This document shows, one piece after another, positions 4,741-20,336 of a DNA stretch of 47,797 bases (position 1 is the first letter of the stretch; every line of letters starts with the position of its first letter). Source of the DNA: a virus (lineage: Duplodnaviria > Heunggongvirae > Uroviricota > Caudoviricetes); IMG/VR virus record IMGVR_UViG_2571042438_000008. One strand, written 5' to 3'. A program made the position numbers and the translations under genes. A model generated the notes under the pieces. That model was given only the letters and a program-made list of their open reading frames with translations. It did no database searches and was not told where the DNA came from.

Positions 4741-4782
4741 TATGATTGTGGGTGTCTGGTTGGAAAGTGACCAGATATGGAA

Positions 4783-4897
4783 ACAAAAAGCCCGCAGATA
4801 AATCTGCGGGCTTCTTGCGACATCCACGGAAAACCAACAACTAACCATGGGCGCCTCGACAACTCCCATTATACGTTGGTTTTCCGTGGACGCAAGA
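4783..4897 (-). ncRNA. Candidate CopA-like antisense RNA controlling repA
   Basis: Read on the minus strand there is a 22-bp interrupted stem (4814-4838 / 4875-4896) with a 36-nt loop. It is followed by the GC hairpin GCCCGCAGA-TTTA-TCTGCGGGC (4790-4811) and a U-run (complement of 4781-4789). A weak promoter-like TAGAGA-N17-TATGTT sits just upstream on the minus strand. The position immediately 5-prime of repA matches IncFII copA/copT. Confidence 0.55.
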
Positions 4898-4905
4898 GCG
4901 AACAT

Positions 4906-5754
4906 ATGGATAGACCAATGCCGTCTCTACGTTCAGCTTACGTTTGTAATTTGTCGCCGGAGTTCCAGCCTCCAAAGCACCATACGCACAAGCTGCCGCT
5001 GGTGTTATCTGATGCTTTACAGCGCATTAATGGGCGTGATCTTACGTGTGAGGTTGCGTTCTACGTTAATCAACCGTCAGAGCGGAAGCGCCGGATAAAC
5101 GAGCATCGTCGTCGGGCGATTAATGCTGTGATCGCTGCGATTTTGCACCATGTAAACATCATTTCTAAGCGGGTTCTGGCCAGTGCTGAGGCGTTGGCTG
5201 ATTTTTGCGGCCTGTCTACCGTATCCGAAGCTGGGAACAAGTCTATAACGCGCTGTACAAGGGCGTTGTCGCAACTGAAAGCGTTAGGTTTTATTGATTA
5301 TGAACGTCGCTGGGATCGGGTGAATAAACAGTATTGGCCAGCGAAAATAGAGATTCGTGATCAACTGCTGGAAACCGTTGGTATTACTGAACAAGCATGG
5401 AGACGTGCGGTTAGCCAGAAACTTAATTACTTCAATGCGAAGAATAGCGAACGGCTTAAAAAAGCGATAACGGAGGCTGATTATAAGCGTATTGTTATTC
5501 AGGAGCAGATGGAGAATGTATGGCATCAGAGGAAGACGGCCAGAGAGATAAAGGCAAAACAGAAAGCAGCGGAGAGAGCTGCGCGTCTTGTTCGGGAAAA
5601 GGGAGAGGCCGAACTTCGTCATCAAATCACTAGAGAGGTTAGCCAGGAATTTGCTGATGGCATGTATCCTGGAGCTGACCTTGCATATTTACGATCCCTC
5701 GTTGAGCAGCGTTATAACAGGTTAAGAAAGACCTGGAAATCACTCCAACATTAA
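4906..5754 (+). CDS. repA: Plasmid replication initiator, IncFII RepA family
   Basis: 282 aa from ATG 4906; the ORF is open from 4777 but that part is the hairpin region. The core RRAINAVIAAILHH..GNKSITRCTRALSQLKALGFIDYERRWD parallels the R1/R100 RepA1 core as I recall it (RRAIDALLQGLCFHY..GKLSITRATRALTFLSELGLITYQTEYD). A DnaA box and an AT-rich origin follow the gene. Confidence 0.85.
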   Translation: MDRPMPSLRSAYVCNLSPEFQPPKHHTHKLPLVLSDALQRINGRDLTCEVAFYVNQPSERKRRINEHRRRAINAVIAAILHHVNIISKRVLASAEALADFCGLSTVSEAGNKSITRCTRALSQLKALGFIDYERRWDRVNKQYWPAKIEIRDQLLETVGITEQAWRRAVSQKLNYFNAKNSERLKKAITEADYKRIVIQEQMENVWHQRKTAREIKAKQKAAERAARLVREKGEAELRHQITREVSQEFADGMYPGADLAYLRSLVEQRYNRLRKTWKSLQH

Positions 5755-8448: not shown

Positions 8449-8829
8449 ATGAGCATGATTAAAATCCGCAAAAACGCTTTCCTTAAAATTCAAACTATCC
8501 TGGCTGGTTCTGTCGGCGTGATTTGCCGTTCTTCTTCAAGCCGCATCGATGACGGCTACGATGATGAGTATCGTGTGTCCTCGTGCGATGAGGCTTTAAC
8601 CTGGCTGAAGGAGAATCAGGAACGTGCCCAGGTATATCTGGAAACAGAGAACGGCAATCAGATGCTGCGTATTAGCGGTCGTTATGGATTTGAAACTACA
8701 TTCATGGCCTATTTTAATCAGGCTTACTTTGACAAGGAGCTGGCCTGGTACACTGACCGCATGAGCAAAAGCGAGCCAGCCCCGATTACACCGCCGAACA
8801 ATAAACCATTTTTATTCCTCGTTAAGTAA
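8449..8829 (+). CDS. Hypothetical protein (first gene behind cassette copy 1)
   Basis: 126-aa ORF starting 8 nt after the cassette GGAGA. I recognise no family. Confidence 0.6.
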   Translation: MSMIKIRKNAFLKIQTILAGSVGVICRSSSSRIDDGYDDEYRVSSCDEALTWLKENQERAQVYLETENGNQMLRISGRYGFETTFMAYFNQAYFDKELAWYTDRMSKSEPAPITPPNNKPFLFLVK

Positions 8830-8837
8830 ACACAATG

Positions 8838-8864
8838 CGCAAAGTGTCATTTTGACACTTTGCG
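8838..8864 (+). terminator. 11-bp perfect hairpin (possible terminator or RNA stabiliser)
   Basis: CGCAAAGTGTC-ATTTT-GACACTTTGCG directly after the 8829 stop. The U-tract is weak. Confidence 0.45.
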
Positions 8865-8892
8865 AGTGTTAATATTGTTCGAGGAGGATGCT

Positions 8893-9166
8893 ATGACGGG
8901 TTATGAATTGAAATTATGGCGTCGTGGGATGAATTGGACGCAGGAGCGAGCCGCTGAAGAGTTTGGGATATCGTTGGCTACATATAAGCGATATGAGAAG
9001 GGTGAGCCGCCGAGGGGGCATTGAGATGGCCATTCGCGTTCTGTCGTTTGACGATATGGTTAAGGATCTTTCACACCTTGATAAAGATGCGATTCTGTTA
9101 AGGCTGCAAACCCTTGTATGGGAAAAGGTTAAAGTGTCGTCAGAATTGGAACAAGGGATCAAATGA
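8893..9166 (+). pseudogene. XRE-family HTH gene interrupted by a frameshift at a G5 run (9014-9018)
   Basis: A GAGGAGGA Shine-Dalgarno precedes ATG 8893. Frame 1 reads MTGYELKLWRRGMNWTQERAAEEFGISLATYKRYEKGEPPRGH and stops at 9024. Removing one G gives ..EPPRGIEMAIRVLSFDDMVKDL.., which continues to 9166 (about 91 aa). Confidence 0.6.
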
Positions 9167-9215
9167 TCCTTTACGGATCGTTTTATGGTGGTGTAATGTA
9201 AGCGCCAGAAAGACA

Positions 9216-9239
9216 AAAACCGCCTTGCCGGGCGGTTTT
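9216..9239. terminator. Bidirectional rho-independent terminator
   Basis: AAAACCGCC-TTGCCG-GGCGGTTTT, with A/T runs on both sides. Confidence 0.7.
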
Positions 9240-9776
9240 CAGTCTGAAATTTAAATCTTGCTTGGTAGGCTGGATTTAAAAAGACACCTCTTGATTGGGG
9301 CGGCTTTCTTGCGTCTAAAGATAATCAAATCTTTTTGCGCCTGCAACCCCTTTTTTACTGGTGCCCATTTCAGACTCACGCTCGCGTCGTTGTCTTTGCC
9401 ACTTCGTTGGGTTCGGTGTTTTTGGGCGAAGTGGCGCGCGGGTATGCGTACAAGGGGAAAGTGTGCTGACGCAAGCCAGGAACAGCGATCTAAACTAAGT
9501 CGAGTCTGAGAAAGGCAGGAGTGCGACAACTCGCCTGTGCTCTATGAGCAGAAGAAGGTATATCAGACGACCAATGGCATGATTGTGGGCCACAGGGCGC
9601 ACACGGCGGCGAAGCATTGGAAACGATGTGGAGCTATCTGGTGGCATGAGTTCCGGTACTCGATCTCGAGCTTTTTTTGATGCTTTTGAGAAGGGGCCGG
9701 AACTCCGGTAAAGGGCACCCTGTATGGGGGGAGGGGGGGTTGTGTCTGAAGGGTGGCTATCGGTTATGGTGGAATT

Positions 9777-9965
9777 ATGATGCGTAGAAAAGCGAGTTTG
9801 CTGCAAGCTATTGGGTCCATTATTTCTTTGTTTCCGGCAGTTGATCATTTTCGTCATATGGCGACACGTTCGAGTATGGGCTTGGCGCGTGACGCTGACG
9901 CTATTCGAAAGGATTTTCAGAAAGTCTCTGGTGTTGATAAGAGAGAAAAGAGTAAGGGGCCGTAG
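9777..9965 (+). CDS. Small hypothetical protein (62 aa; ORF open from 9753)
   Basis: MMRRKASLLQAIGSIISLFPAVDHFRHMATRSSMGLARDADAIRKDFQKV.. is not low-complexity. GGTGGA lies upstream of ATG 9777. The ORF ends inside a GC hairpin. Confidence 0.35.
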   Translation: MMRRKASLLQAIGSIISLFPAVDHFRHMATRSSMGLARDADAIRKDFQKVSGVDKREKSKGP

Positions 9966-9971
9966 CCCCTT
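9954..9971 (-). terminator. GC hairpin after the antirepressor gene stop
   Basis: AAGGGGC-CGTA-GCCCCTT. On the minus strand it is followed by a pyrimidine/U-rich tract. Confidence 0.45.
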
Positions 9972-9975
9972 GTAG

Positions 9976-11175
9976 TTATGGTCTGCTTTTCTGTGCCAGC
10001 TTATCAGCACATGTTTTTATCAGATCCTGTAGTGTCCTGGCTGGCAGGTTTGCATCCAGTACGCTGAGTATGCTGTTGTGATCTGCTTGGTCGACTACTT
10101 TGCCTGTCGGTGGTAGTAGCTTGAGCTGAGGATTCAGGTTTTCGTCAAAGCTGATAAGTGCTCTGGCGTTTCTGAGCAGATCAAGAAGTAAGGCTGATAT
10201 CACATTTTCCTGAGTCATTGCTGGCAGACTTAGCGCCGCTTTGGTTTTCCCTGTTGCCTTGTCAAACTCCTTGATTAGTTCCTTCCTGTAGTTCGGTTCC
10301 GTTAATAGCCGATTATGCTCTGTTGCCGCGCGGATAATCGTTTTTTCCTGGTATAGTCGTTTAGCCAGATCACGCTCGTACTGTGTTTTTAACACGCTGC
10401 TGATAGCGTTAAAGGCTTCAATGTAGGCCAGCTTGATATCTTTCACGCCTGGACCGTCGATGCTCTCCATGAGCAAGGTAAATCCGTCTTTTGTCATGCG
10501 ATAGATTGTTATTTCGCGGTCGCTTCCTTCCAGCGGTCGTTGCTCTTTAAAGAAGTGACGCGCCGCAGCCGTGCGAGGAATGCGTAGCGCATCGATGGCC
10601 ATAACGATGGAATTGTTTGTGGTGCTGAATGCCTGGGCAACATCGGCTGAGGTTGTGAGTGGCTCGTTGTTGCACACTTTAATGTAAAACATCGGTTTGG
10701 CGTTGAGCGTATCGACAACCTCACGAGCATTGCTTGGCGAGACGGTTACGGTCGCGGCCGTTTGCGCGTTCCGGCTGAAATAGCAGTCTTCCAGCCGTTC
10801 GAACACATCCCACGCTTGGTTAGTTTCAAGCATTTTGGCGTGACGTGCAGCCCCGCGTTCTGTCCAGAGAATGAGGGAGCGGGCTTTCGGGGAAATTTGT
10901 AACCCTCTTAAAGATGGTTGCACATTTTGTGAGTTACTTAAAGTAACCCGCAAATTTTGTGAGTGACTTAAAGTCACTCGCAAAGTTTTTAACTCATCGC
11001 CAGCCACTTTGAAAAAATGCTTTCCTTCAATAAAGCGGTTTGCGTTACGTGAGTAATTTTTTTTGATGTTATCAACGTCTGTGCCGTATAGCTTTGCCAG
11101 TAGTTCAGTAGTGATAACGGGGATCTGGTTATGCAGGATAGGCTGTAGGGTGTTAACGGTCGGAAGCGTTTTCAT
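9976..11175 (-). CDS. ant: Antirepressor-like protein (N-terminal ORF6N/KilA-N-like domain + Rha-like domain)
   Basis: The N-terminus IPVITTELLAKLYGTDVDNIKKNYSRNANRFIEGKHFFKV...ILWTERGAARHAKMLETNQAWDVFERLEDCYF is ORF6N-type. The middle EPLTTSADVAQAF..IYRMTKDGFTLLMESIDGPGVKDIKLAYIEAFN is Rha-type. The start overlaps the upstream ORF stop (ATGA). Confidence 0.8.
   Translation of the reverse strand: MKTLPTVNTLQPILHNQIPVITTELLAKLYGTDVDNIKKNYSRNANRFIEGKHFFKVAGDELKTLRVTLSHSQNLRVTLSNSQNVQPSLRGLQISPKARSLILWTERGAARHAKMLETNQAWDVFERLEDCYFSRNAQTAATVTVSPSNAREVVDTLNAKPMFYIKVCNNEPLTTSADVAQAFSTTNNSIVMAIDALRIPRTAAARHFFKEQRPLEGSDREITIYRMTKDGFTLLMESIDGPGVKDIKLAYIEAFNAISSVLKTQYERDLAKRLYQEKTIIRAATEHNRLLTEPNYRKELIKEFDKATGKTKAALSLPAMTQENVISALLLDLLRNARALISFDENLNPQLKLLPPTGKVVDQADHNSILSVLDANLPARTLQDLIKTCADKLAQKSRP
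10921..10980. repeat. Two tandem 30-bp repeats inside ant, each holding a 5-bp-arm palindrome (GTTAC-TTAAA-GTAAC / GTGAC-TTAAA-GTCAC)
   Basis: 10921-10950 and 10951-10980 differ at 4 positions. Two of those differences are compensatory (T:A to G:C) and preserve the palindrome. Confidence 0.8.
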
Positions 11176-11399: not shown

Positions 11400-11413
11400 T
11401 CGAGGCTAATCAA

Positions 11414-11497
11414 ATGGTGGTGAGCCGTACAGGGTTAGCCTTACCGGACACAATGACGAACCGGCGCGGATTTCTCCGCCCCTGTACGACCCACCAT
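11414..11497 (-). ncRNA. Candidate structured regulatory RNA (c4-like) in the ant operon leader
   Basis: An 84-nt three-way structure. The outer stem is ATGGTGG/CCACCAT (7 bp), the second stem GTACAGGG/CCCTGTAC (8 bp), and the inner hairpins are GCGGA-TTTC-TCCGC (11466-11479) and CCGG..CCGG (11444-11464). The loop segment AGGCUAA (minus-strand RNA) is complementary to UUAGCCU, which occurs in two flanking direct repeats GAUUAGCCUC (11402-11411 and 11567-11576). Confidence 0.35.
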
Positions 11498-11525
11498 AAT
11501 TTGGGCGTAACAGTGCTCTACGCAT

Positions 11526-11545
11526 AAAAAAACCGCTAACGCGGT
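11526..11545 (-). terminator. Rho-independent terminator (minus strand) inside the ant leader
   Basis: On the minus strand ACCGC-GTTA-GCGGT is followed by T7. Confidence 0.65.
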
Positions 11546-11658
11546 ATGCGCCATCGTGTTATTCAGGAGGCTAATCCCGGCCGTAGATTTTGCTACGGCT
11601 CGGAAAGTGTCCACCAATGGCGCATTTATGTCAATACGGCGGGATTTTAACAGAGACA

Positions 11659-11807: not shown

Positions 11808-12116
11808 CAAAAGGTAATAATAGTCCACTATTATGCTTCAAAAAATTGTGGTTCTTGTTGTGCCTGCAAACTCACAGATTGTGGGTAGGTTACTGATTTT
11901 GTGAAAATAAACGAGTTTTTTCGTTTAATTTCTTTCCTATTACTAATCTTAAAATAATCGTAAAATACCTGTGGACCTTCCCGCCGATTCGCACCCGGGC
12001 ACCGACTTTAGGGGAGGATTCTCCGTTGCCGTACATGCAAGCACAAGCAGCCGTGCTTGCTCTCGCGTTGTTTTCGTCGGTGGGGATGCCGTGAAACGGC
12101 CTGTAAGGGCCATACA

Positions 12117-12239
12117 ATGAAAAAATACTGTATGTGTATTTTTATCGTTGTTACTGGGGCTTTGTTTACGCCACATGGGGAGGGTTGGAAGATTACTGAT
12201 AACGCTCTGAATGTGACGATAAACATTAGCAGCAAGTAG
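12117..12239 (+). CDS. Small hydrophobic peptide (40 aa), candidate type I toxin or small membrane/secreted protein
   Basis: MKKYCMCIFIVVTGALFTPHGEGWKITDNALNVTINISSK. A strong plus-strand terminator follows immediately. A TAAAAT -10-like hexamer at 11961-11966 would give a ~145-nt structured 5-prime UTR. The Shine-Dalgarno is weak. Confidence 0.4.
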   Translation: MKKYCMCIFIVVTGALFTPHGEGWKITDNALNVTINISSK

Positions 12240-12244
12240 CGATT

Positions 12245-12268
12245 AGGCCCCTTCGGGGGCCTTTTTTT
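12245..12268 (+). terminator. Rho-independent terminator (plus strand)
   Basis: AGGCCCC-TTCG-GGGGCCT followed by T7. Confidence 0.8.
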
Positions 12269-14053: not shown

Positions 14054-14710
14054 TCATAACCAGTTGACAACACTAACTACGCGGCCAAGAACTTTATAAC
14101 GCTTAAATTCCTCGTTATTCAGATGCTTAGTGTTCATTTCAGCATCCCTTTCGGTTGACAGCATAACAGCATTGTCACCCGGTATGACTCTACAGTGCCT
14201 CAAAACAACCAGGCCATTTCTGTCTTCAAGGGCATAGATCCCCTCATGAATCTCTGTATCGTCTGTATTAATCAGGACTTGGGAGCCTGGGGATATTGTT
14301 GGTGACATTAACTCATCGTTGCTCTGGAGAACTGACAGAGACGATGGGTTGATGTTCTTGCTTCGTAGAATCTCCTGTTCTATCGCCAGCACTGGCTTTT
14401 CTCCGGCGTGCGATGCTATGTCATTTTTTATAGCTACAAGCCCAGGAATAACAGGAGCGTTAGTATTCTGGGGTGGGAACGGGTTATCTGTTAAGCACGC
14501 GATATAAGGCGCTGATGCTTTCAGGGCGTGCGCGATTTTCTTGATGGCAGGTATAGATGGTTGTCTTAATCCGGCCTCATAGTTCTGCAAGGTGCTTAAG
14601 CCTATTCCAGTGACTTGCTGGAGATCTCCGGCAGTCATGCCGGATTGTTTCCGTAGAGTCTGAATGCGCAGACCTATTTCTTTCTTGATGTTCTCGTCGT
14701 TGCTTTTCAT
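14054..14710 (-). CDS. CI-like repressor (XRE HTH + S24 LexA-like C-terminal domain, catalytic dyad apparently substituted)
   Basis: The N-terminal HTH is MTAGDLQQVTGIGLSTLQNYEAG. The C-terminus aligns by eye to the S24 fold: DELMSPTISPGSQVLIN against GDSMEPTI.dGd.vlv, and GLVVLRHCRV against ..vvKRl... The gene is divergent from a Cro-like gene across an operator-rich region. Confidence 0.85.
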   Translation of the reverse strand: MKSNDENIKKEIGLRIQTLRKQSGMTAGDLQQVTGIGLSTLQNYEAGLRQPSIPAIKKIAHALKASAPYIACLTDNPFPPQNTNAPVIPGLVAIKNDIASHAGEKPVLAIEQEILRSKNINPSSLSVLQSNDELMSPTISPGSQVLINTDDTEIHEGIYALEDRNGLVVLRHCRVIPGDNAVMLSTERDAEMNTKHLNNEEFKRYKVLGRVVSVVNWL

Positions 14711-14747
14711 GTCTCATCAATCGTGAATGGTGGGTTATTTATACATT

Positions 14748-14762
14748 ACCACATTTAGTGGT
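14748..14762. promoter_or_regulatory. Operator: perfect ACCAC-ATTTA-GTGGT
   Basis: In the cI/cro divergent intergenic region. Confidence 0.6.
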
Positions 14763-14850
14763 TTTCACATGGTAAGACGAGAGGTGGACCACAAATAGAA
14801 GGTTATTTTTTGTTTCGCCCATTGAAAAACTCACGATATGTGGTTTTAAT

Positions 14851-14865
14851 ACCACGTATCGTGGT
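14851..14865. promoter_or_regulatory. Operator: perfect ACCAC-GTATC-GTGGT
   Basis: In the cI/cro intergenic region. Degenerate relatives lie at 14788-14804 (ACCAC-AAATA-GAAGGTT) and 14830-14844 (CTCAC-GATAT-GTGGT). Confidence 0.6.
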
Positions 14866-14884
14866 TTTAACTGGAGTTCGTTAA

Positions 14885-15379
14885 ATGACCTTTCAGGAGT
14901 GGGTTGACGAAAATGGAGGCCAAATTGGTGTTGCCAGAAAGTTTTGCTTTACGTCATCACTGATTGGTGCCTGGTATCGCTTCGAGAGATTCCCTCGTGC
15001 GGATAACCTGACGCTGCTGGTGGCGTATTCGGAAGGCCGGATTAACGTCCAGCAATGGGCGGCAGATTTTGCCGAACGTCAGCGCCAGCGTAGCGATGGC
15101 ACATCGGTTCGGCAGAACAAGATCAAAGGGAATCTCCCTGTTAACTGCTTATCAAGGCTGAAAGCGGTTTTCTCTGAGCTGGGGATGCCTGCGGAGCGTT
15201 GCAATCTACGCGGTCCGCGATTCATTGCTCGCTGGAAACACTCACACGTAACCGTTTCAGAGGTTCGTGATGCGATTACCGTGCTGGAGCTTAAGAATAA
15301 AGATTCCAGCGATATCGAGCTGATTCATAAGGAGATTAGCAACGCCCGGCGTTCAGCACTTGGGAGGCTTGAGGAATGA
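14885..15379 (+). CDS. Cro/YdaS-like HTH protein with C-terminal extension (first gene of rightward operon)
   Basis: Divergent from cI. The N-terminus QEWVDENGGQIGVARKFCFTSSLIGAWYRFERFP resembles the Cro/YdaS-type HTH. Confidence 0.55.
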   Translation: MTFQEWVDENGGQIGVARKFCFTSSLIGAWYRFERFPRADNLTLLVAYSEGRINVQQWAADFAERQRQRSDGTSVRQNKIKGNLPVNCLSRLKAVFSELGMPAERCNLRGPRFIARWKHSHVTVSEVRDAITVLELKNKDSSDIELIHKEISNARRSALGRLEE

Positions 15380-15891
15380 TGATTCTGGCCTTCTTTGGTG
15401 ATAATCACCAGATTCAATCGCAGGTGGTGCACTACCTTGATCAAACGATTAAAGGATTTGTTATCGATCATATTGATAACGATAGCAAACGTCTATCTGT
15501 AGAGCAGAAAATTGGAGGTGTGCAGCGACTGGTTGCCAGCCGTAACAGACGTGACACCGTAACAGTCGTTACGGGGATTACGGAGGTCATGGAGTACCAG
15601 ATGTTGCTGCATCGTGGAGCTGTTTTCTGCGTTCTTCCTGGTATTCTGCCAGCAATTCTTGCTCGTGGTTTTGTCCCTATTGATGAGTCGTTCTTATATG
15701 TAACCCCAAGCCGTTCCCTTCTGGATACGGAGGCGAAGCGTCGCATTTATATGATGCCGGACGAGGCATTTTCTGAATGTTACCGCCGTGAAATGAGGTT
15801 GGGTAAACGAGAAGTGTCTGTTGTTCGTGATGGCAGGTTTTTAAGAAGCCGCACGGTGAAAAGCACCAGAAATGACGGGGGCCATCAATGA
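15376..15891 (+). CDS. Hypothetical protein
   Basis: 171-aa ORF with start overlapping the upstream stop (ATGATGA). Confidence 0.6.
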   Translation: MMILAFFGDNHQIQSQVVHYLDQTIKGFVIDHIDNDSKRLSVEQKIGGVQRLVASRNRRDTVTVVTGITEVMEYQMLLHRGAVFCVLPGILPAILARGFVPIDESFLYVTPSRSLLDTEAKRRIYMMPDEAFSECYRREMRLGKREVSVVRDGRFLRSRTVKSTRNDGGHQ

Positions 15892-16121
15892 GTAGTTATG
15901 TTCGCGGTGCTGCGATGCATTGCCAGAATCCCCAATTCTGGCGCTTTCTGACCAGTAAAACAGGGAAGAACGTTTCAAACAGTTCTGAGGCCTCTGTGAT
16001 TCTGCGTGAGTTTTGCGGGATCTCATCCCGTAAAGAGCTGGCAAAGAACTACGCGGCCAGAAGCATGTATGTCCAGTTAATCAACGAGTTCAACCTCTTT
16101 ATCAATGGTAAGGGGCGCTGA
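15888..16121 (+). CDS. Hypothetical protein
   Basis: 77-aa ORF with overlapping start and stop on both sides. Confidence 0.55.
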   Translation: MSSYVRGAAMHCQNPQFWRFLTSKTGKNVSNSSEASVILREFCGISSRKELAKNYAARSMYVQLINEFNLFINGKGR

Positions 16122-16525
16122 TGAACGGACGTACACCAACGAAGAAAGAGAAACTTTATATACAAGCGGTGCTCACTCACGTGGGTTGCATAGCTTGCAT
16201 TATTGATGGCCGTGAAATTGAGAATCCAGAGCTGTGGACGGAGCTACATCACGATCCTGATTACGGCAGCGTTGATGAGAATTGCCACTTCCATAGCTTT
16301 GGGTTGTGCGCACCACATCATCGCGGTGTTGTGCCTGGTGGTGGGCGTGTGCCTCCGCATATTGCCGTTCGTCACCCTCCCCTGAGTAATTGTGCTCGCT
16401 TTGTTGAGCGTTATGGCACAGATGAATTTTTGTGTGCGCAGACGTGGGAGCTGTTGCCGCAGTCAGTTAAAGACGAAATTGGGTTTGATCTTAGTCTTGG
16501 TGAAGTACCAGGGGATACCAAATGA
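16121..16525 (+). CDS. HNH-type nuclease, P1 Ref-like (recombination enhancement) family
   Basis: The Cys/His pattern GCIACI..ELHHDP..FGLCAPHHRG is as I recall it for Ref-family proteins. The gene sits in an early operon. Confidence 0.5.
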   Translation: MNGRTPTKKEKLYIQAVLTHVGCIACIIDGREIENPELWTELHHDPDYGSVDENCHFHSFGLCAPHHRGVVPGGGRVPPHIAVRHPPLSNCARFVERYGTDEFLCAQTWELLPQSVKDEIGFDLSLGEVPGDTK

Positions 16526-16854
16526 GATATACCGGCTTTCGCAAACCAGCGACAAGGAAAAGCAAATACGGCAATAAAAAAACGGTTGTCGATGATATCG
16601 CTTTTGATAGCAAAAAAGAGGCTGATTACTACTGCGAACTGAAGCTACTGAGAAAAGCTGGCCGCGTTGTGACGTTTCTTATGCAGGTGCCTTTTCATCT
16701 GCCAGGTGGTGTCGTTTATAAACTTGATTTCATGGTGTTTTATGACGATGGGACGATTGATTGTGTCGACACTAAAGGTGTGCGAACAGACGTCTACATC
16801 ATGAAGAAAAAGCAGGTAGAGGCGCTTTATCCCGTCACGATACGGGAGATCTGA
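16522..16854 (+). CDS. DUF1064-family protein (putative PD-(D/E)XK-like endonuclease/resolvase)
   Basis: KYGNKKTVVDDIAFDSKKEADYYCELKLL..KLDFMVFYDDG..DTKG matches the DUF1064 signature. Confidence 0.75.
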   Translation: MRYTGFRKPATRKSKYGNKKTVVDDIAFDSKKEADYYCELKLLRKAGRVVTFLMQVPFHLPGGVVYKLDFMVFYDDGTIDCVDTKGVRTDVYIMKKKQVEALYPVTIREI

Positions 16855-16857
16855 ACA

Positions 16858-17235
16858 GTGAGACGCGATCTGGATAGCTTGTTTGAGCTATGGGCGCTGT
16901 GGGTGCGCAATGGCTGCAACGCCCGTAGCGGTTTCGCGTCGATGTTAGAAATGATGATGGTTACGCGCTGCCAGTTTACCGGAGGGGGCGGCGCACCAAA
17001 TGACTCACTGGAAACCAGTATAGAGGGAGCGGTGACGGCCCTCACGGTAGTTGATGAGACTGCGGCGCTGGTTGTCCGAATTGAATACGGGGCGTGGGAG
17101 ATTCGGGGCCTCGACATAAATGCACCGCATATTGATAAAGCCCACGCCCTTTCTCTTAGCCTCAGACAGTATCGCCGGAAGCTGGCAAAAGCCAGGGCGT
17201 ATGTTGTCGACTATTTGAAAAAGCGAAGAGAGTAA
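16858..17235 (+). CDS. Antitermination protein Q-like
   Basis: 125 aa. The LFELWALWVRNG.. N-terminus and the ..LSLSLRQYRRKLAKARAYVVDYL C-terminus resemble the Phage_antitermQ family. It is the last gene of the early operon and is directly followed by cassette copy 2. Confidence 0.5.
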   Translation: MRRDLDSLFELWALWVRNGCNARSGFASMLEMMMVTRCQFTGGGGAPNDSLETSIEGAVTALTVVDETAALVVRIEYGAWEIRGLDINAPHIDKAHALSLSLRQYRRKLAKARAYVVDYLKKRRE

Positions 17236-17296
17236 AAGTGTCATTTTGAGCTGTTTTGATGGTGTGTAGACATCGGGAACATCGAAAATCTATAAA

Positions 17297-17398
17297 TATA
17301 TAATTATAGATTTATATAAAAAGTGCTTTACAGGTGGGAAAAAATTTCCTATGGTTATACCCGAAACCGAGCGATACCCGCCCTGGTTAAACCGGAGA
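17297..17398 (+). repeat. Promoter-leader cassette, copy 2 of 3 (102 bp)
   Basis: -35 TTTACA at 17327-17332, -10 TATGGT at 17350-17355. Identity with copy 3 continues to the ATG (AATCTGATGA). An extra inverted AT word ATCTATAA lies upstream (17288-17295). Confidence 0.85.
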
Positions 17399-17404
17399 AA
17401 TCTG

Positions 17405-18472
17405 ATGAATAAACAAGTAATTATTTCTGACTGGATCAACAACCCTAACAGCCTGTTAAGCACTGATACTGGCTACCTATTACGCCATGTTAATGGTCGT
17501 ATGGTCAAAAGCGATGAGCACGAAACCTTTTTCTTTGTTGAAGACGATGGGCGTATCTATGAGGATGGTTACTCTTATGAAGCCCAAACTGGTTGTATCC
17601 CTGCGGAGCTGGTGGACGTAACAGAAGATCTGCGCAAAGCATGGCTTGAACAGCAGCAGCGCGGAGATGATTACGTAAACACCTATCAGGAACGCCAGAA
17701 CGCGCGTCTTGCCCGATATATTGCTCGTGCAGAAAAAGCCAGAAAAGAAGGTGCGGTAGCGCATAAGCGAGCGCATGACCTGTTGGATGTGATCCCGTTA
17801 GGCCAGCCGATTTTAGTTGACCATTATAGCGCGAAAGGCCATCGCCGCCGTTTGTCTAAAGCTGATGCGTTATTCAGAAAAGCGTTTGTTGAATGCGAAA
17901 GTAAAGCATCACACTACGAGAGCAAAGCCGCAGGTGTTGGTCGTAATGGAATTTCGTCTGATGATCCTGATGCGCTATTTAAGTTGCTTCGTAAGCTGCA
18001 AGGCTGCATGAAGTCACACGTCAAAATGAAGGCCGCAAATAAGGCCATTCGCAAATACAAAAAAGACCAAATACAGCAGCTTTCTGCATTAATCGATCTC
18101 AGGTTTACAGAAAGCGAAGCCAAAGAGTTACTGGCCGGAGATTTCTGTGGGCACATCGGATTCCCTTCATACGCACTGAGCAACAATAACGCCGAAATCA
18201 AACGACTACAGAGCCGTATTAAGGAGCTTGAATCGGTCAAGTCTGTAACAGGAGCACAGCGCGAAGAATACGACGGCTTTTCTATGGAGATAGATCCAGA
18301 GGATAACCGCATCCTGTTTTATTTCCCTGGCAAACCAGAGGCAAACATTCGTTCGCTGCTTAAATCACGCGCCTTTAAGTGGAGTCCAACCCGTAATGCA
18401 TGGGTTCGCAAGATTACTCCAAACGCCCTGGCTGATGCCCGATATCTAAAAGAATCGCTATTGAAAGCCTGA
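17405..18472 (+). CDS. DUF3560-family protein
   Basis: 355 aa from ATG 17405. The block GQPILVDHYSAKGHRRRLSKAD..ISSDDPDA..MKAANKAIRKY and the C-terminal FKWSPTRNAWVR fit DUF3560, a family common in plasmid leading regions. The upstream extension MVIPETERYPPWLNRRNL is just the cassette leader. Confidence 0.7.
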   Translation: MNKQVIISDWINNPNSLLSTDTGYLLRHVNGRMVKSDEHETFFFVEDDGRIYEDGYSYEAQTGCIPAELVDVTEDLRKAWLEQQQRGDDYVNTYQERQNARLARYIARAEKARKEGAVAHKRAHDLLDVIPLGQPILVDHYSAKGHRRRLSKADALFRKAFVECESKASHYESKAAGVGRNGISSDDPDALFKLLRKLQGCMKSHVKMKAANKAIRKYKKDQIQQLSALIDLRFTESEAKELLAGDFCGHIGFPSYALSNNNAEIKRLQSRIKELESVKSVTGAQREEYDGFSMEIDPEDNRILFYFPGKPEANIRSLLKSRAFKWSPTRNAWVRKITPNALADARYLKESLLKA

Positions 18473-18503
18473 CAGTAAGCCTACGGCGGGACGTCTCCCG
18501 CCG

Positions 18504-18536
18504 TATATAGAATTATATATTTATACAAATGTATAA
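18504..18536. repeat. AT box (TATATAGAATTATATATTTATACAAATGTATAA)
   Basis: AT-box family member at an operon boundary. It is preceded by the hairpin ACGGCGGGA-CGTC-TCCCGCCGT (18484-18505). Confidence 0.6.
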
Positions 18537-18549
18537 GGACGCCTCGACA

Positions 18550-18831
18550 ATGAAACGCAAAATTATTAACCCCCAAGATGTGATTAATTTCCTGACCGAT
18601 CACCCATGTTCAAAAGTGGACGTAATCGCGGAGCACATTGGTGTGTCGCAGAACTCTATGCGTTGCAGACTGAGAAGCATGGTTGCCGAAGGACAGATAA
18701 CAACCAGGAAAATAAATGGTTGCCTGTACTACTCCGCTAAACCGGAATTGCCATTTGGCATGAATCCTAACTCCATGTTGTTTAACACCTTATTAGCCAA
18801 AGTTAAGCCGTTGAGAGGGGCTGTGGCATGA
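18550..18831 (+). CDS. Winged-helix DNA-binding protein (alternative start 18529)
   Basis: INFLTDHPCSKVDVIAEHIGVSQNSMRCRLRSMVAEGQI is a MarR/wHTH-like pattern. Confidence 0.55.
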   Translation: MKRKIINPQDVINFLTDHPCSKVDVIAEHIGVSQNSMRCRLRSMVAEGQITTRKINGCLYYSAKPELPFGMNPNSMLFNTLLAKVKPLRGAVA

Positions 18832-19193
18832 GCATCAAAACCCATACCGGAATAATCATTACCAATGATGGTGAGAAAAGAGTGAAGTTGCGCGAAACGC
18901 CGACAACCTGGTGTGTTGGTCCGAAAGAAACATATCGCAAGGAAGATGGCCGTCGTTGTGGGGCACCACTTTCCCGCCGTCGCCTCCTTTTGAGCACGAT
19001 AAAACCTATCGGGCAGGTTGAGCAACCAACGACTCCGGTAACGAAGATTTCAGACAAGAGTCTGGCAAACCTGATCGCTGATGCGGACAAGGTGCTGGAG
19101 CGGAACACCCCCGTTGCAGATGAGGAATGGTGGCAGGATTTCCGAGCCGCAATGCTAGAGCTTCAGGAACGTCGTCGGGAGGAGTTGAAGTGA
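18828..19193 (+). CDS. Hypothetical protein
   Basis: 121-aa ORF with overlapping junctions. Confidence 0.55.
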   Translation: MSIKTHTGIIITNDGEKRVKLRETPTTWCVGPKETYRKEDGRRCGAPLSRRRLLLSTIKPIGQVEQPTTPVTKISDKSLANLIADADKVLERNTPVADEEWWQDFRAAMLELQERRREELK

Positions 19194-19381
19194 GCAAGAA
19201 AAATGCCGGATGGGTCAGGCCAATGAAGGCGAATAAACATCATTATTTTAATGAAGGTGAAGTAACCAGCATTTGCGGCCGTTGGATGTATTTTGGTGAT
19301 TACCGTGAGCCAGACACTTTTGAGAGTCCTGATGATTGCGTGTCTTGTCGCCGGAAATTGAACAAGGTGGCTTCTAAATGA
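19190..19381 (+). CDS. Small Cys-containing protein (GTG start)
   Basis: GTGA overlap with the upstream stop and a GGAGGAG Shine-Dalgarno. ICGRW..CVSC suggests a zinc-ribbon-like fold. Confidence 0.45.
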   Translation: MSKKNAGWVRPMKANKHHYFNEGEVTSICGRWMYFGDYREPDTFESPDDCVSCRRKLNKVASK

Positions 19382-19989
19382 AAGAACGTGGTGTTGTTTT
19401 TAATGACGATATGGTTAGGGCCATCCTCGAAGGAAGGAAGACGCAGACTCGCCGACCTGTAAAAAATGTCAGGGCCGATAACTGCCTGGTTATCCGTAAA
19501 CCGACAAAGAAACGCAATGGTGTCTATACCCACGTTATGGATGCACTGGAACATGGTTTATGCCCGTTCGGTAACGTTGGTGATCGCATATGGGTCCGTG
19601 AAACATTCAACGCTTTTTGGCTGGATAACGATGTCATTCAGGAAATCAAAGATGGTGTCTCTCTGGCTTCTGAACTGTGTGATTACAAGGCTGATTACTC
19701 AGATAGTAGCAAGCCAGCTGAGGGCTGGACCCCGTCGATTCACATGCCGCGCTGGGCTTCGCGTATTTTGCTGGAAATTACCGACGTGCGTGTGGAGCGG
19801 CTGCATGACATGAGCGAGGCAGATGCTAAAGCAGAAGGCGCATCTCCGGTGACGTACAAGATTACACCGCCGGAAGCTGTTTATCGCGTTGGCTTTGGTG
19901 ATATCTGGCGCGGTATTTACGGGCAAGAGAACTGGCTATCTAACCCGTGGGTATGGGTAATTGAGTTTAAGCGTATTAAGGAAGCATAA
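19378..19989 (+). CDS. ASCH/PUA-like domain phage protein
   Basis: FNDDMVRAILEGRKTQTRRP..GDRIWVRE..SIHMPRWASRILLEITDVRVERLHDMSEADAKAEG is a signature I recognise from ASCH-like phage proteins. Confidence 0.55.
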   Translation: MKERGVVFNDDMVRAILEGRKTQTRRPVKNVRADNCLVIRKPTKKRNGVYTHVMDALEHGLCPFGNVGDRIWVRETFNAFWLDNDVIQEIKDGVSLASELCDYKADYSDSSKPAEGWTPSIHMPRWASRILLEITDVRVERLHDMSEADAKAEGASPVTYKITPPEAVYRVGFGDIWRGIYGQENWLSNPWVWVIEFKRIKEA

Positions 19990-19991
19990 CT

Positions 19992-20336
19992 ATGAGCAAA
20001 TCACTTAACGCACGCTGCATCCGTCGCTGGACCGTCGAATTTAAAGGCCGCTGCGACTCAAAATATAGCCCGTATTGGCGTAAGCGCGACCTGCGGGGGT
20101 ACATCCGTGAGGTTGCACTGAACACCGCGGATTGCATGGTCGAGCGTATGGCCGAGGATAATGCGATGGTAGATTTTCAGGGGGCTAATCGAGGATGGTC
20201 GCCGGAGTTCTCAGCCTGGTACCACGAACGCCGTGAACAGTATCTCAAAGAGGCGCGCGACCATCTGAACGAAGACGCCACCAATGACGAGGTTGACGAG
20301 GAGATTCAGAACGAGCTGGAGGCCTGGAATGACTAA
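19992..20336 (+). CDS. Hypothetical protein
   Basis: 114-aa ORF. Confidence 0.55.
   Translation: MSKSLNARCIRRWTVEFKGRCDSKYSPYWRKRDLRGYIREVALNTADCMVERMAEDNAMVDFQGANRGWSPEFSAWYHERREQYLKEARDHLNEDATNDEVDEEIQNELEAWND

Follow-up and report, generated by a model that had tools for sequence, protein, structure and literature searches.

The 47.8-kb stretch of DNA analysed here (IMG/VR record IMGVR_UViG_2571042438_000008, referred to as the window) is a circular phage-plasmid that, over the stretch tested, is 99% identical to the Yersinia phages vB_YpM_39, vB_YpM_41 and vB_YpM_44. Seventy-two Escherichia coli plasmids of 46–52 kb match the window, including pECO-b75 and the 48.5-kb plasmid of strain ATCC 25922, and the 62 matching plasmids in PLSDB come from Escherichia, Salmonella and Klebsiella. 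The gene set comprises P2-like tail genes, an S24-type CI repressor and ParA, together with a P1-type immI region (C4 RNA and an ORF6N/Rha antirepressor) and an intact IncFII-family RepA encoded at 4777–5754. In the records of the window and its relatives that were inspected, nothing is annotated between a small helix-turn-helix (HTH) gene, whose stop codon lies at 9164–9166, and position 9777. An earlier note made from the sequence alone had described positions 9241–9776 as a GC-rich stretch free of open reading frames (ORFs). This was confirmed, as the GC content is 51.5% compared with 44.6% for the whole window and no credible gene was found. The true unit is larger, extending from approximately 9165 to 9753, and takes in the hairpin at 9216–9239. 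On the comparisons described below, this element is probably a divergent member of the ColE1 class of RNA-primed, Rep-protein-free origins and would presumably be active as one. Its GC content (51.5–51.9%) agrees with the 51.7–59.4% published for the conserved regions of enterobacterial ColE1 plasmids (PMC5864857).

The lead to ColE1 was a weak full-length match to the Rfam RNAI family on the minus strand and the appearance of the flanks. The reference set consisted of nine sequences, the pMB1 origin (100% identical to NC_009716) and eight diverse natural ColE1-type origins. The best match in the whole window to an nhmmer profile of the nine was at 9165–9239 (E=0.0033), aligned to the RNAII promoter and first hairpin, and a weak second match (9672–9708) was found at the collinear position. 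Global alignment of 9165–9760 with each of the nine origins gave scores of 104–150 (z=6.9–14.4 against 200 dinucleotide shuffles, which scored 36–42±8–10), and the reverse-complement control scored 25–45, inside the shuffle range. Among 1,890 segments of 596 nucleotides (nt) covering both strands of the whole window, the element ranked first for three references, scoring 113–150 where the background was 30±10 and reached 77 at most. Identity to the ColE1-type origins is about 65% across approximately 518 columns, collinear from the RNAII promoter to the origin, and the relationship is a distant one. The matched blocks in the 5′ part are the promoter GATC..GATC with GTAAT, the AAAAACCGCC hairpin and GGCGC.GCGG...GGGG..GTGC, and those in the 3′ part are GCGCAC..GG.GC, the GGAAACG loop, TTTTT.TGATGCT, GGGG.CGGA and GG.AAA. 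In the reciprocal search, a profile of the family to which the element belongs matched the 5′ and 3′ ends of ColE1 origins at corresponding coordinates.

The family alignment comprises 21 distinct variants (84–100% identity) drawn from plasmids, from IMG/VR and from metagenomic sequence. Its RNAalifold consensus contains 156 pairs, and 99.5% of the cells are paired. Covariation among relatives, which the earlier note had proposed as a check, was detected. Seven pairs change on both sides, compared with 0–2 when the partners were slid and 2.3±1.2 in shuffles, and the covariation score is 0.054 compared with 0.009–0.019 for the controls. One-sided changes are mostly G-U/G-C/A-U interconversions that are compatible with pairing on the plus strand alone. 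The plus-strand fold gains 39 further canonical pair types against 34 non-canonical ones, and the minus-strand fold 15 against 40. On this pattern of substitution, the structured RNA is placed on the plus strand.

When five family variants were aligned jointly with the nine ColE1 origins, 66 shared pairs were found (96% of cells paired). Changes on both sides affect 27 of the 66, mostly as clean splits between the family and ColE1, compared with 2–7 in slid controls, and the joint covariation score is 0.429 compared with 0.05–0.11. Single-sequence folding energies are unremarkable (z=−2.2 for the plus strand and −3.1 for the minus strand), and the case rests on comparison between sequences. 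With these shared pairs and a length of 505–547 nt from its predicted start, the RNA corresponds in silico to a preprimer of about 550 nt with conserved structure. Judged from the alignments, the resemblance to ColE1 is homology of sequence as well as of fold, and the structured RNA is to be read as an RNAII-type preprimer of a ColE1-type origin.

The element is also better conserved than its surroundings. It is 90% identical to its counterpart in a Salmonella Weltevreden plasmid, compared with 77% for the HTH gene, 74% for a 126-aa gene and 80% for each of higB and higA, and it is evidently under purifying selection. Conservation ends sharply at about 9753, 547 nt from the predicted start, and is followed by at least five unrelated downstream sequences. 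To the right of this point, the relatives L009, L036, L037, L013, L004 and L043 have the small ORF, direct abutment to the terminator of the antirepressor gene (ant), or other sequences. The right end of the element looks like a recombination junction. An exact-pattern scan of viral contigs recovered the family and two chance matches, and the same scan of metagenome contigs recovered the diverged variants L037, L043 and L051. In species-representative genomes, the scan gave nine chance matches only and the element was found in none.

The features recognised in the element are listed in Table 1. The putative RNAII promoter begins with the repeat GATCC-N5-GGATC (9165–9179), which includes two Dam GATC sites. 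The candidate hexamers are TTTACG (9170–9175) and, after an 18-nt spacer, TAATGT (9194–9199), with TGTAAT (9192–9197) as an alternative −10. The region aligns to the ColE1 RNAII promoter GGATC..TTGAGATCC...GTAATCT, and the ColE1 reference sequences have the mirror arrangement GGATC-N7-GATCC, plus GTAATCT. Both hexamers and both GATC sites are the same in all 21 variants, which differ only in the spacer, at 9185–9188. The start of the transcript is placed at about 9207 by ColE1-like spacing.

On the minus strand, in each of four variants, the predicted antisense RNA folds as three stem-loops in succession (z=−3.0 to −4.0). The terminator scan found that it ends in an intrinsic terminator (9241–9214) followed by TTTTTGTCTTT / UUUUUGUCUUU. 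Hence, an antisense RNA of about 100 nt with the three stem-loops and terminator of RNAI, complementary to the 5′ end of RNAII, is predicted in silico. The earlier note had treated the hairpin at 9216–9239 as a bidirectional terminator lying outside the region. The terminator itself stands, but as the element's own stem-loop 1 and antisense terminator, and it aligns to the first ColE1 hairpin. In three ColE1-type plasmids (L020, L021 and L023, at about 197–221), the first RNAII hairpin is identical at 24 of 25 positions to window 9215–9239 but runs the other way; the two have the stem in common and differ by an inverted loop, CAGCAA on the RNAII strand of these plasmids compared with TTGCCG on that of the window. 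The putative RNAI promoter, a weak match to the consensus (7/12), lies about 105 nt into RNAII, compared with about 110 nt in ColE1. Its hexamers are invariant in the 21 variants, and both substitutions (columns 171 and 178 of alignment A4) fall in the spacer. The most variable part of the element is the middle antisense stem-loop (9258–9272). ColE1-type plasmids diversify their copy-control specificity in the middle antisense stem-loop.

Within the preprimer, the clearest hairpins are those at 9398–9435 and the GAAA-capped one at 9614–9629. In the first of these, both partners have changed in four pairs and one partner in a further three. In the second, two-sided changes were found in two pairs within the family and four across families, and the GGAAACG loop is invariant in 14 of 14 sequences. 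The GGGGAAAGTGTGC block is inside the longest invariant stretch of the family and aligns with the G-run of pMB1 and of L016. A GUGUGC–GCGCAC pairing, with two double changes, is present in both families. The origin-proximal 3′ hairpin corresponds to ColE1 GGGUUUCGCC...GGGGGGCGGAGCC; its helix is kept in the family and in ColE1 alike, at 100% pairing and with double changes, and it includes the second nhmmer match. The hairpin is preceded by GGGG (9693–9696). Together with the GGGG at 9454–9457 and the AAA at 9710–9712, this GGGG aligns with the G-runs and the GGAAAAA of ColE1, so that G-rich segments followed by an A-run at the switch point were found at the level of sequence. The predicted switch from RNA to DNA would lie either at this AAA, where ColE1 GGAAAAA corresponds to GGTAAAG about 505 nt from the start, or just past the G6AG7 tract at about 9750. 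A 3′ extension of about 40 nt, made up of GGGCACCC, G6AG7 and TTGTGTCTGAAGG, has no counterpart in ColE1. The earlier note had drawn attention to the G6AG7 tract and to two palindromes in this part of the element. The tract is present, as is CTCGATCTCGAG at 9659–9670, and CCGGAACTCCGG is present one base to the right of the position given for it (9697–9708 rather than 9696–9707). The tract may be a G-run that stabilises an R-loop adjoining the start of DNA synthesis.

Table 1. Features of the element at approximately 9165–9753 of the window
Feature	Position	Strand	Description
Putative RNAII promoter	9165–9199	+	Inverted repeat, −35-like and −10-like sequences; alignment to the ColE1 RNAII promoter
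RNAII-like preprimer transcript (predicted)	9207–9753	+	Predicted from ColE1 alignment and covariation
RNAI-like antisense RNA, ~100 nt (predicted)	~9311 to ~9210 (9209–9311)	−	Complementary to RNAII nt 3 to ~105
Hairpin AAAACCGCC-TTGCCG-GGCGGTTTT	9216–9239	Both	RNAII stem-loop 1 (+); antisense terminator and third stem-loop (−)
GTCTGA/TCAGAC copies (five)	9242 (+), 9370 (−), 9504 (+), 9563 (−), 9744 (+)	Alternating	Within 9242–9749
Putative RNAI promoter	9318–9346	−	TTGCAG (9346–9341), 17-nt spacer, TATCTT (9323–9318)
Hairpin GCCACTTCG...CGAAGTGGC	9398–9435	+	Strongest covariation within the family
GGGGAAAGTGTGC block	9454–9466	+	Counterpart of the ColE1 upstream G-rich loop GGGGGGTTCGTGC
Hairpin GCAUUG-GAAA-CGAUGU	9614–9629	+	Counterpart of ColE1 CCAGG-GGGAAACG-CCUGG
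Origin-proximal 3′ hairpin GAGUUCCGG / CCGGAACUC, inner stem CUCGAG..UUUUGAG	9648–9708	+	9/9 inverted repeat
G6AG7 tract	9726–9739	+	Present in each of the 21 variants; run length differs only slightly

The long-range pairings reported in the earlier note were mostly recovered. AGTCTGAAAT (9241–9250) and ATTTCAGACT (9367–9376) are complementary at 10 of 10 positions, and TTTAAATC (9250–9257) pairs with GATTTAAA (9273–9280) as the TTAAATC/GATTTAA-type stem. The TTGATT/AATCAA stem was not borne out, as relatives have TTAAAT or TCAATT while AATCAA is unchanged. One 10-nt inverted repeat in 650 nt is near chance expectation (about 0.2 expected). The substitutions in the 9241–9250/9367–9376 helix preserve pairing, with one pair changing from U-A to U-G and another found as U-A, U-G and A-U.

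Copies of GTCTGA/TCAGAC are clustered in the element, which has five of the window's 22 copies within 510 nt (about 0.2 expected). The five, designated alpha to epsilon from left to right, could form mutually exclusive pairings, either alpha-beta with gamma-delta or beta-gamma with delta-epsilon. The alpha copy is inside the antisense target and the epsilon copy abuts the G-tract. In thermodynamic folding, alpha-beta forms in the first 180 nt, and once gamma is present the minimum-energy fold favours beta-gamma. As beta-gamma is preferred whether the antisense target is masked or unmasked, equilibrium folding does not discriminate the two states, and we therefore only infer, by comparison with the ColE1 switch, that the repeats may relay antisense binding to the origin.

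By analogy with ColE1, the promoter at 9165–9199 would drive a long, highly folded RNAII-like transcript from about 9207. The G-rich 3′ part (GGGG at 9693–9696 and the G6AG7 tract) would remain hybridised to the C-rich template strand, forming an R-loop. Host RNase H would then cleave the hybrid and DNA polymerase I (Pol I) would extend the cut RNA, with the switch at AAA 9710–9712 or at about 9750. The RNAI-like antisense RNA of about 100 nt would pair with the 5′ end of the nascent preprimer, causing it to refold and reducing the number of initiations. No terminator was found at the 3′ end of the long plus-strand RNA in the terminator scan, and none is needed by a primer transcript. An origin of this kind may serve plasmid maintenance or lytic growth, alongside the IncFII-type RepA replicon that is also present.

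A more specific proposal is that the ColE1-type origin is the vegetative (lytic) origin of the phage, which would amplify its genome after induction from an antisense-gated Pol I/RNase H primer, and that RepA serves low-copy lysogeny only. In this proposal, the G6AG7 tract would lock the R-loop in the manner of mitochondrial conserved sequence block II (CSB II), and through the five alternating motifs the binding of the antisense RNA near the 5′ end would be transmitted to the origin-proximal 3′ end. We regard this as possible but rather unlikely. When the early rightward operon (14885–20336) was compared with PHROGs, no replication initiator or helicase was recognised, which leaves room for a vegetative origin without establishing one.

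Several observations weigh against assignment of the element to the ColE1 class. In blastn searches of phages, plasmids and E. coli genomes at a sensitivity of 65–70%, the element was linked to no ColE1 plasmid, and the distant mode returned only the same phage-plasmid family, at identities of at least 84%. The full-length Rfam RNAI (RF00106) match (9286–9213, minus strand) scores 18.1 bits (E=1.1), below the gathering score of 47, and no RNAI match at E≤10 was found in the relatives L004, L037 and L043. The ColRNAI replicon is not shown by PLSDB/MOB-suite for the two family plasmids inspected, and five family accessions are absent from the text supplements of a census of 1,035 ColE1 plasmids (PMC8683028). 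A simple sigma-70 consensus scan of 8800–10100 finds no promoter, and the RNAII and RNAI candidates come from alignment to ColE1 and from conservation; by our reading, the TAATCT of ColE1 fits the consensus just as poorly as the RNAII candidate does. The consensus structures were predicted from the same alignments that were used for the pair counts, which flatters them relative to the slid controls. A search from repA to the element found no derivative with the element but without repA. All family members seen keep repA intact, and hence the element has never been seen sustaining a replicon alone. Finally, two natural variants have internal deletions, of 50 nt (L043) and 22 nt (L051). The metagenomic L043 lacks the equivalent of 9395–9444, consisting of the covarying hairpin at 9398–9435 and its flanks, and the metagenomic L051 lacks the equivalent of 9498–9519, which is exactly the gamma copy of GTCTGA. 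These may be natural copy-control variants or inactive copies.

The presence of the intact IncFII-type repA, the weak consensus matches of the promoters and the two deletion variants would also suit an explanation in which a small ColE1-type plasmid co-integrated long ago and the element is what survives of it. It would no longer fire, RepA would drive replication, and the RNAs would be idle or co-opted. This appears unlikely. A dead origin should decay, yet the element is 90% identical in a comparison in which flanking genes are 74–80% identical. Its helices are maintained by compensatory and wobble-compatible changes, and the promoter hexamers and GATC sites are invariant. No traces of mob, rop or cer were found beside the element.

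It is considerably less likely still that the element encodes a structured RNA unrelated to replication, such as a long 5′ leader for the small ORF or a phage RNA that acts in trans and is regulated by its own antisense partner, and that its likeness to ColE1 is convergent. A plus-strand RNA structure is well supported, C4, isrK-like and ryfA-like RNAs cluster nearby, and the small ORF follows directly in the lineage of the window. However, convergence would have to account for full-length collinear similarity to nine ColE1-type origins, with the same spacing and far above chance, and for helices common to both families. The RNA also has no 3′ terminator. The small ORF is missing in at least five lineages that retain the element. 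The earlier note had suggested untranslated regions (UTRs) among the forms such an RNA might take. A 5′ UTR of the small ORF is unlikely, as the ORF is swapped for unrelated sequence in at least five lineages with the element intact to about 9753, and a 3′ UTR of ant can be rejected, as ant is on the minus strand with its own terminator (9954–9971) and the substitutions favour a plus-strand RNA.

A decayed protein-coding gene or overlooked small genes can be dismissed, as the ORFs inside the region (42–92 aa in several frames, plus a 171-aa minus-strand ORF entering the next gene) are mechanical and overlapping, none of the eight compared with Pfam matched at E≤0.1, relatives differ by 1-nt indels and by losses of 22 and 50 nt that no reading frame would tolerate, substitutions track base pairing rather than codon position, and neither PGAP nor the phage depositors called a gene here. 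Of the three options that the earlier note had left unranked, the structured RNA and the replication site thus turn out to be the same thing, and decayed coding sequence falls away. The small ORF at 9777–9965 was examined for a Rop-like role. No Pfam or PDB sequence match was found, the single-sequence model (one long helix; predicted local distance difference test score of 70) was uninformative, and the ORF is missing in several lineages, so a Rop-like role has no support. The accessory protein Rop/Rom, which is optional in the ColE1 family, was not found here.

Other features of the window were noted in the course of this work. The HTH gene upstream (8893–9166) is frameshifted by an extra base in the G-run near 9011–9015 (CCGAGGGGGCATT in the window compared with CCGA-GGGTCATT in the ATCC 25922 plasmid), which divides an otherwise intact 90-aa protein into ORFs at 8860–9024 and 8963–9166. 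The extra base could have arisen by mutation or could be a sequencing error in the homopolymer. At gathering thresholds, the Rfam matches in the whole window are C4, isrK, ryfA and one tRNA, and the region of the element is empty; a permissive scan of this region (E≤10) gave only chance-level matches to other families, beyond the weak RNAI match. The ryfA RNA is a full-length match (11971–12267, plus strand; 141.8 bits, E=1.7e-36) that adjoins the immI region. A P1-type C4 antisense RNA (70.8 bits; 11413–11501) and an isrK-like Hfq-binding RNA (68 bits; 11526–11599), both on the minus strand, are found upstream of the ORF6N/Rha antirepressor. The P1-like immI module coexists with a main repressor of the S24 CI type (14054–14710). 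The cI-cro intergenic region (14700–14890) contains repeated GTGGTTTT(A/C)A motifs, among them the near-palindrome GTGGTTTTAATACCAC at 14840, and these are likely to be repressor operators. Only two 8-mers are shared between this region and the RNAII promoter, which gives no evidence for a common operator or for repressor control of the RNAII promoter. In the early rightward operon, the comparison with PHROGs points only to a Ref-like nuclease, a resolvase-like protein with DUF1064, and a DUF3560 protein. For the last of these there is a second match, to a PHROG family whose annotation is primase (E=3e-36).

A ColE1-type origin accounts for the retention by a compact phage of half a kilobase without genes, and gives a replication system that is among the best understood a further, deep branch. 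A second, RNA-controlled origin on a phage-plasmid is relevant to copy number, to incompatibility with the ColE1 vectors used in laboratories and to the switch of phage-plasmids from low-copy maintenance to amplification. Because its RNAI/RNAII pair is divergent, it could also provide a cloning origin that is orthogonal by nature. In the literature, no report of a ColE1-type origin in a phage-plasmid was found, nor anything on vB_YpM_39. The ColE1-like sequences found in phage records seem to stem from contamination by vectors or small plasmids and not from genuine phages.

Phage P1 has dual replicons, oriR/RepA in the plasmid state and oriL/RepL in lytic growth. The phage-plasmid studied here resembles P1 in being a plasmid prophage with a P1-like immI (C4 RNA and ant), a RepA replicon and a candidate second origin activated by transcription, but the element codes for no protein and belongs with the RNA-primed origins of ColE1 type, and a lytic role for it is conjecture. 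Human mitochondrial CSB II is G6AG8 and forms a primer R-loop. The G6-A-G7 of the element is nearly identical and is likewise on the non-template strand beside the presumed transition from RNA to DNA; however, the mitochondrial system is unrelated, and we found no evidence for G-quadruplex-dependent termination in the element.

The closest likeness is to ColE1, pMB1 and p15A, members of a class that replicates by the theta mode, depends on Pol I and RNase H and uses no Rep protein. The element matches them in the order and spacing of its parts. It has a putative RNAII promoter flanked by two GATC sites and containing a GTAAT −10, then a first hairpin also serving to terminate the antisense RNA, which is predicted to have three stem-loops, to be about 100 nt long and to start at about nt 105. 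Further along come a G-run loop inside the RNA (GGGG..GTGC), a hairpin whose loop is GGAAACG, a 3′ hairpin rich in T, and a G-run then an A-run at 505–547 nt. Unlike these origins, the element has the G6AG7 3′ extension of about 40 nt and a shorter, realigned second antisense stem-loop region. It is too diverged for blastn, Rfam RNAI and, apparently, PLSDB replicon typing, which miss it even in the reference strain E. coli ATCC 25922. It also lacks rop, mob and cer, and is found beside an IncFII-type RepA in a 48-kb temperate phage-plasmid rather than in a small multicopy plasmid. Co-integrates of ColE1 in large plasmids are known, with 64 of 1,035 ColE1 replicons in plasmids of >25 kb (PMC8683028), and these likewise combine a ColE1-type origin with a Rep-dependent replicon on one large molecule. 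Those, however, carry recognisable, recent ColE1 modules, often with rop or mob, whereas the element is a deep lineage of its own and is a fixed part of an entire phage-plasmid family that spans Escherichia, Salmonella and Klebsiella. The kind of origin is known, including its occurrence in large plasmids, and what is new is the sequence subfamily and the phage-plasmid setting.

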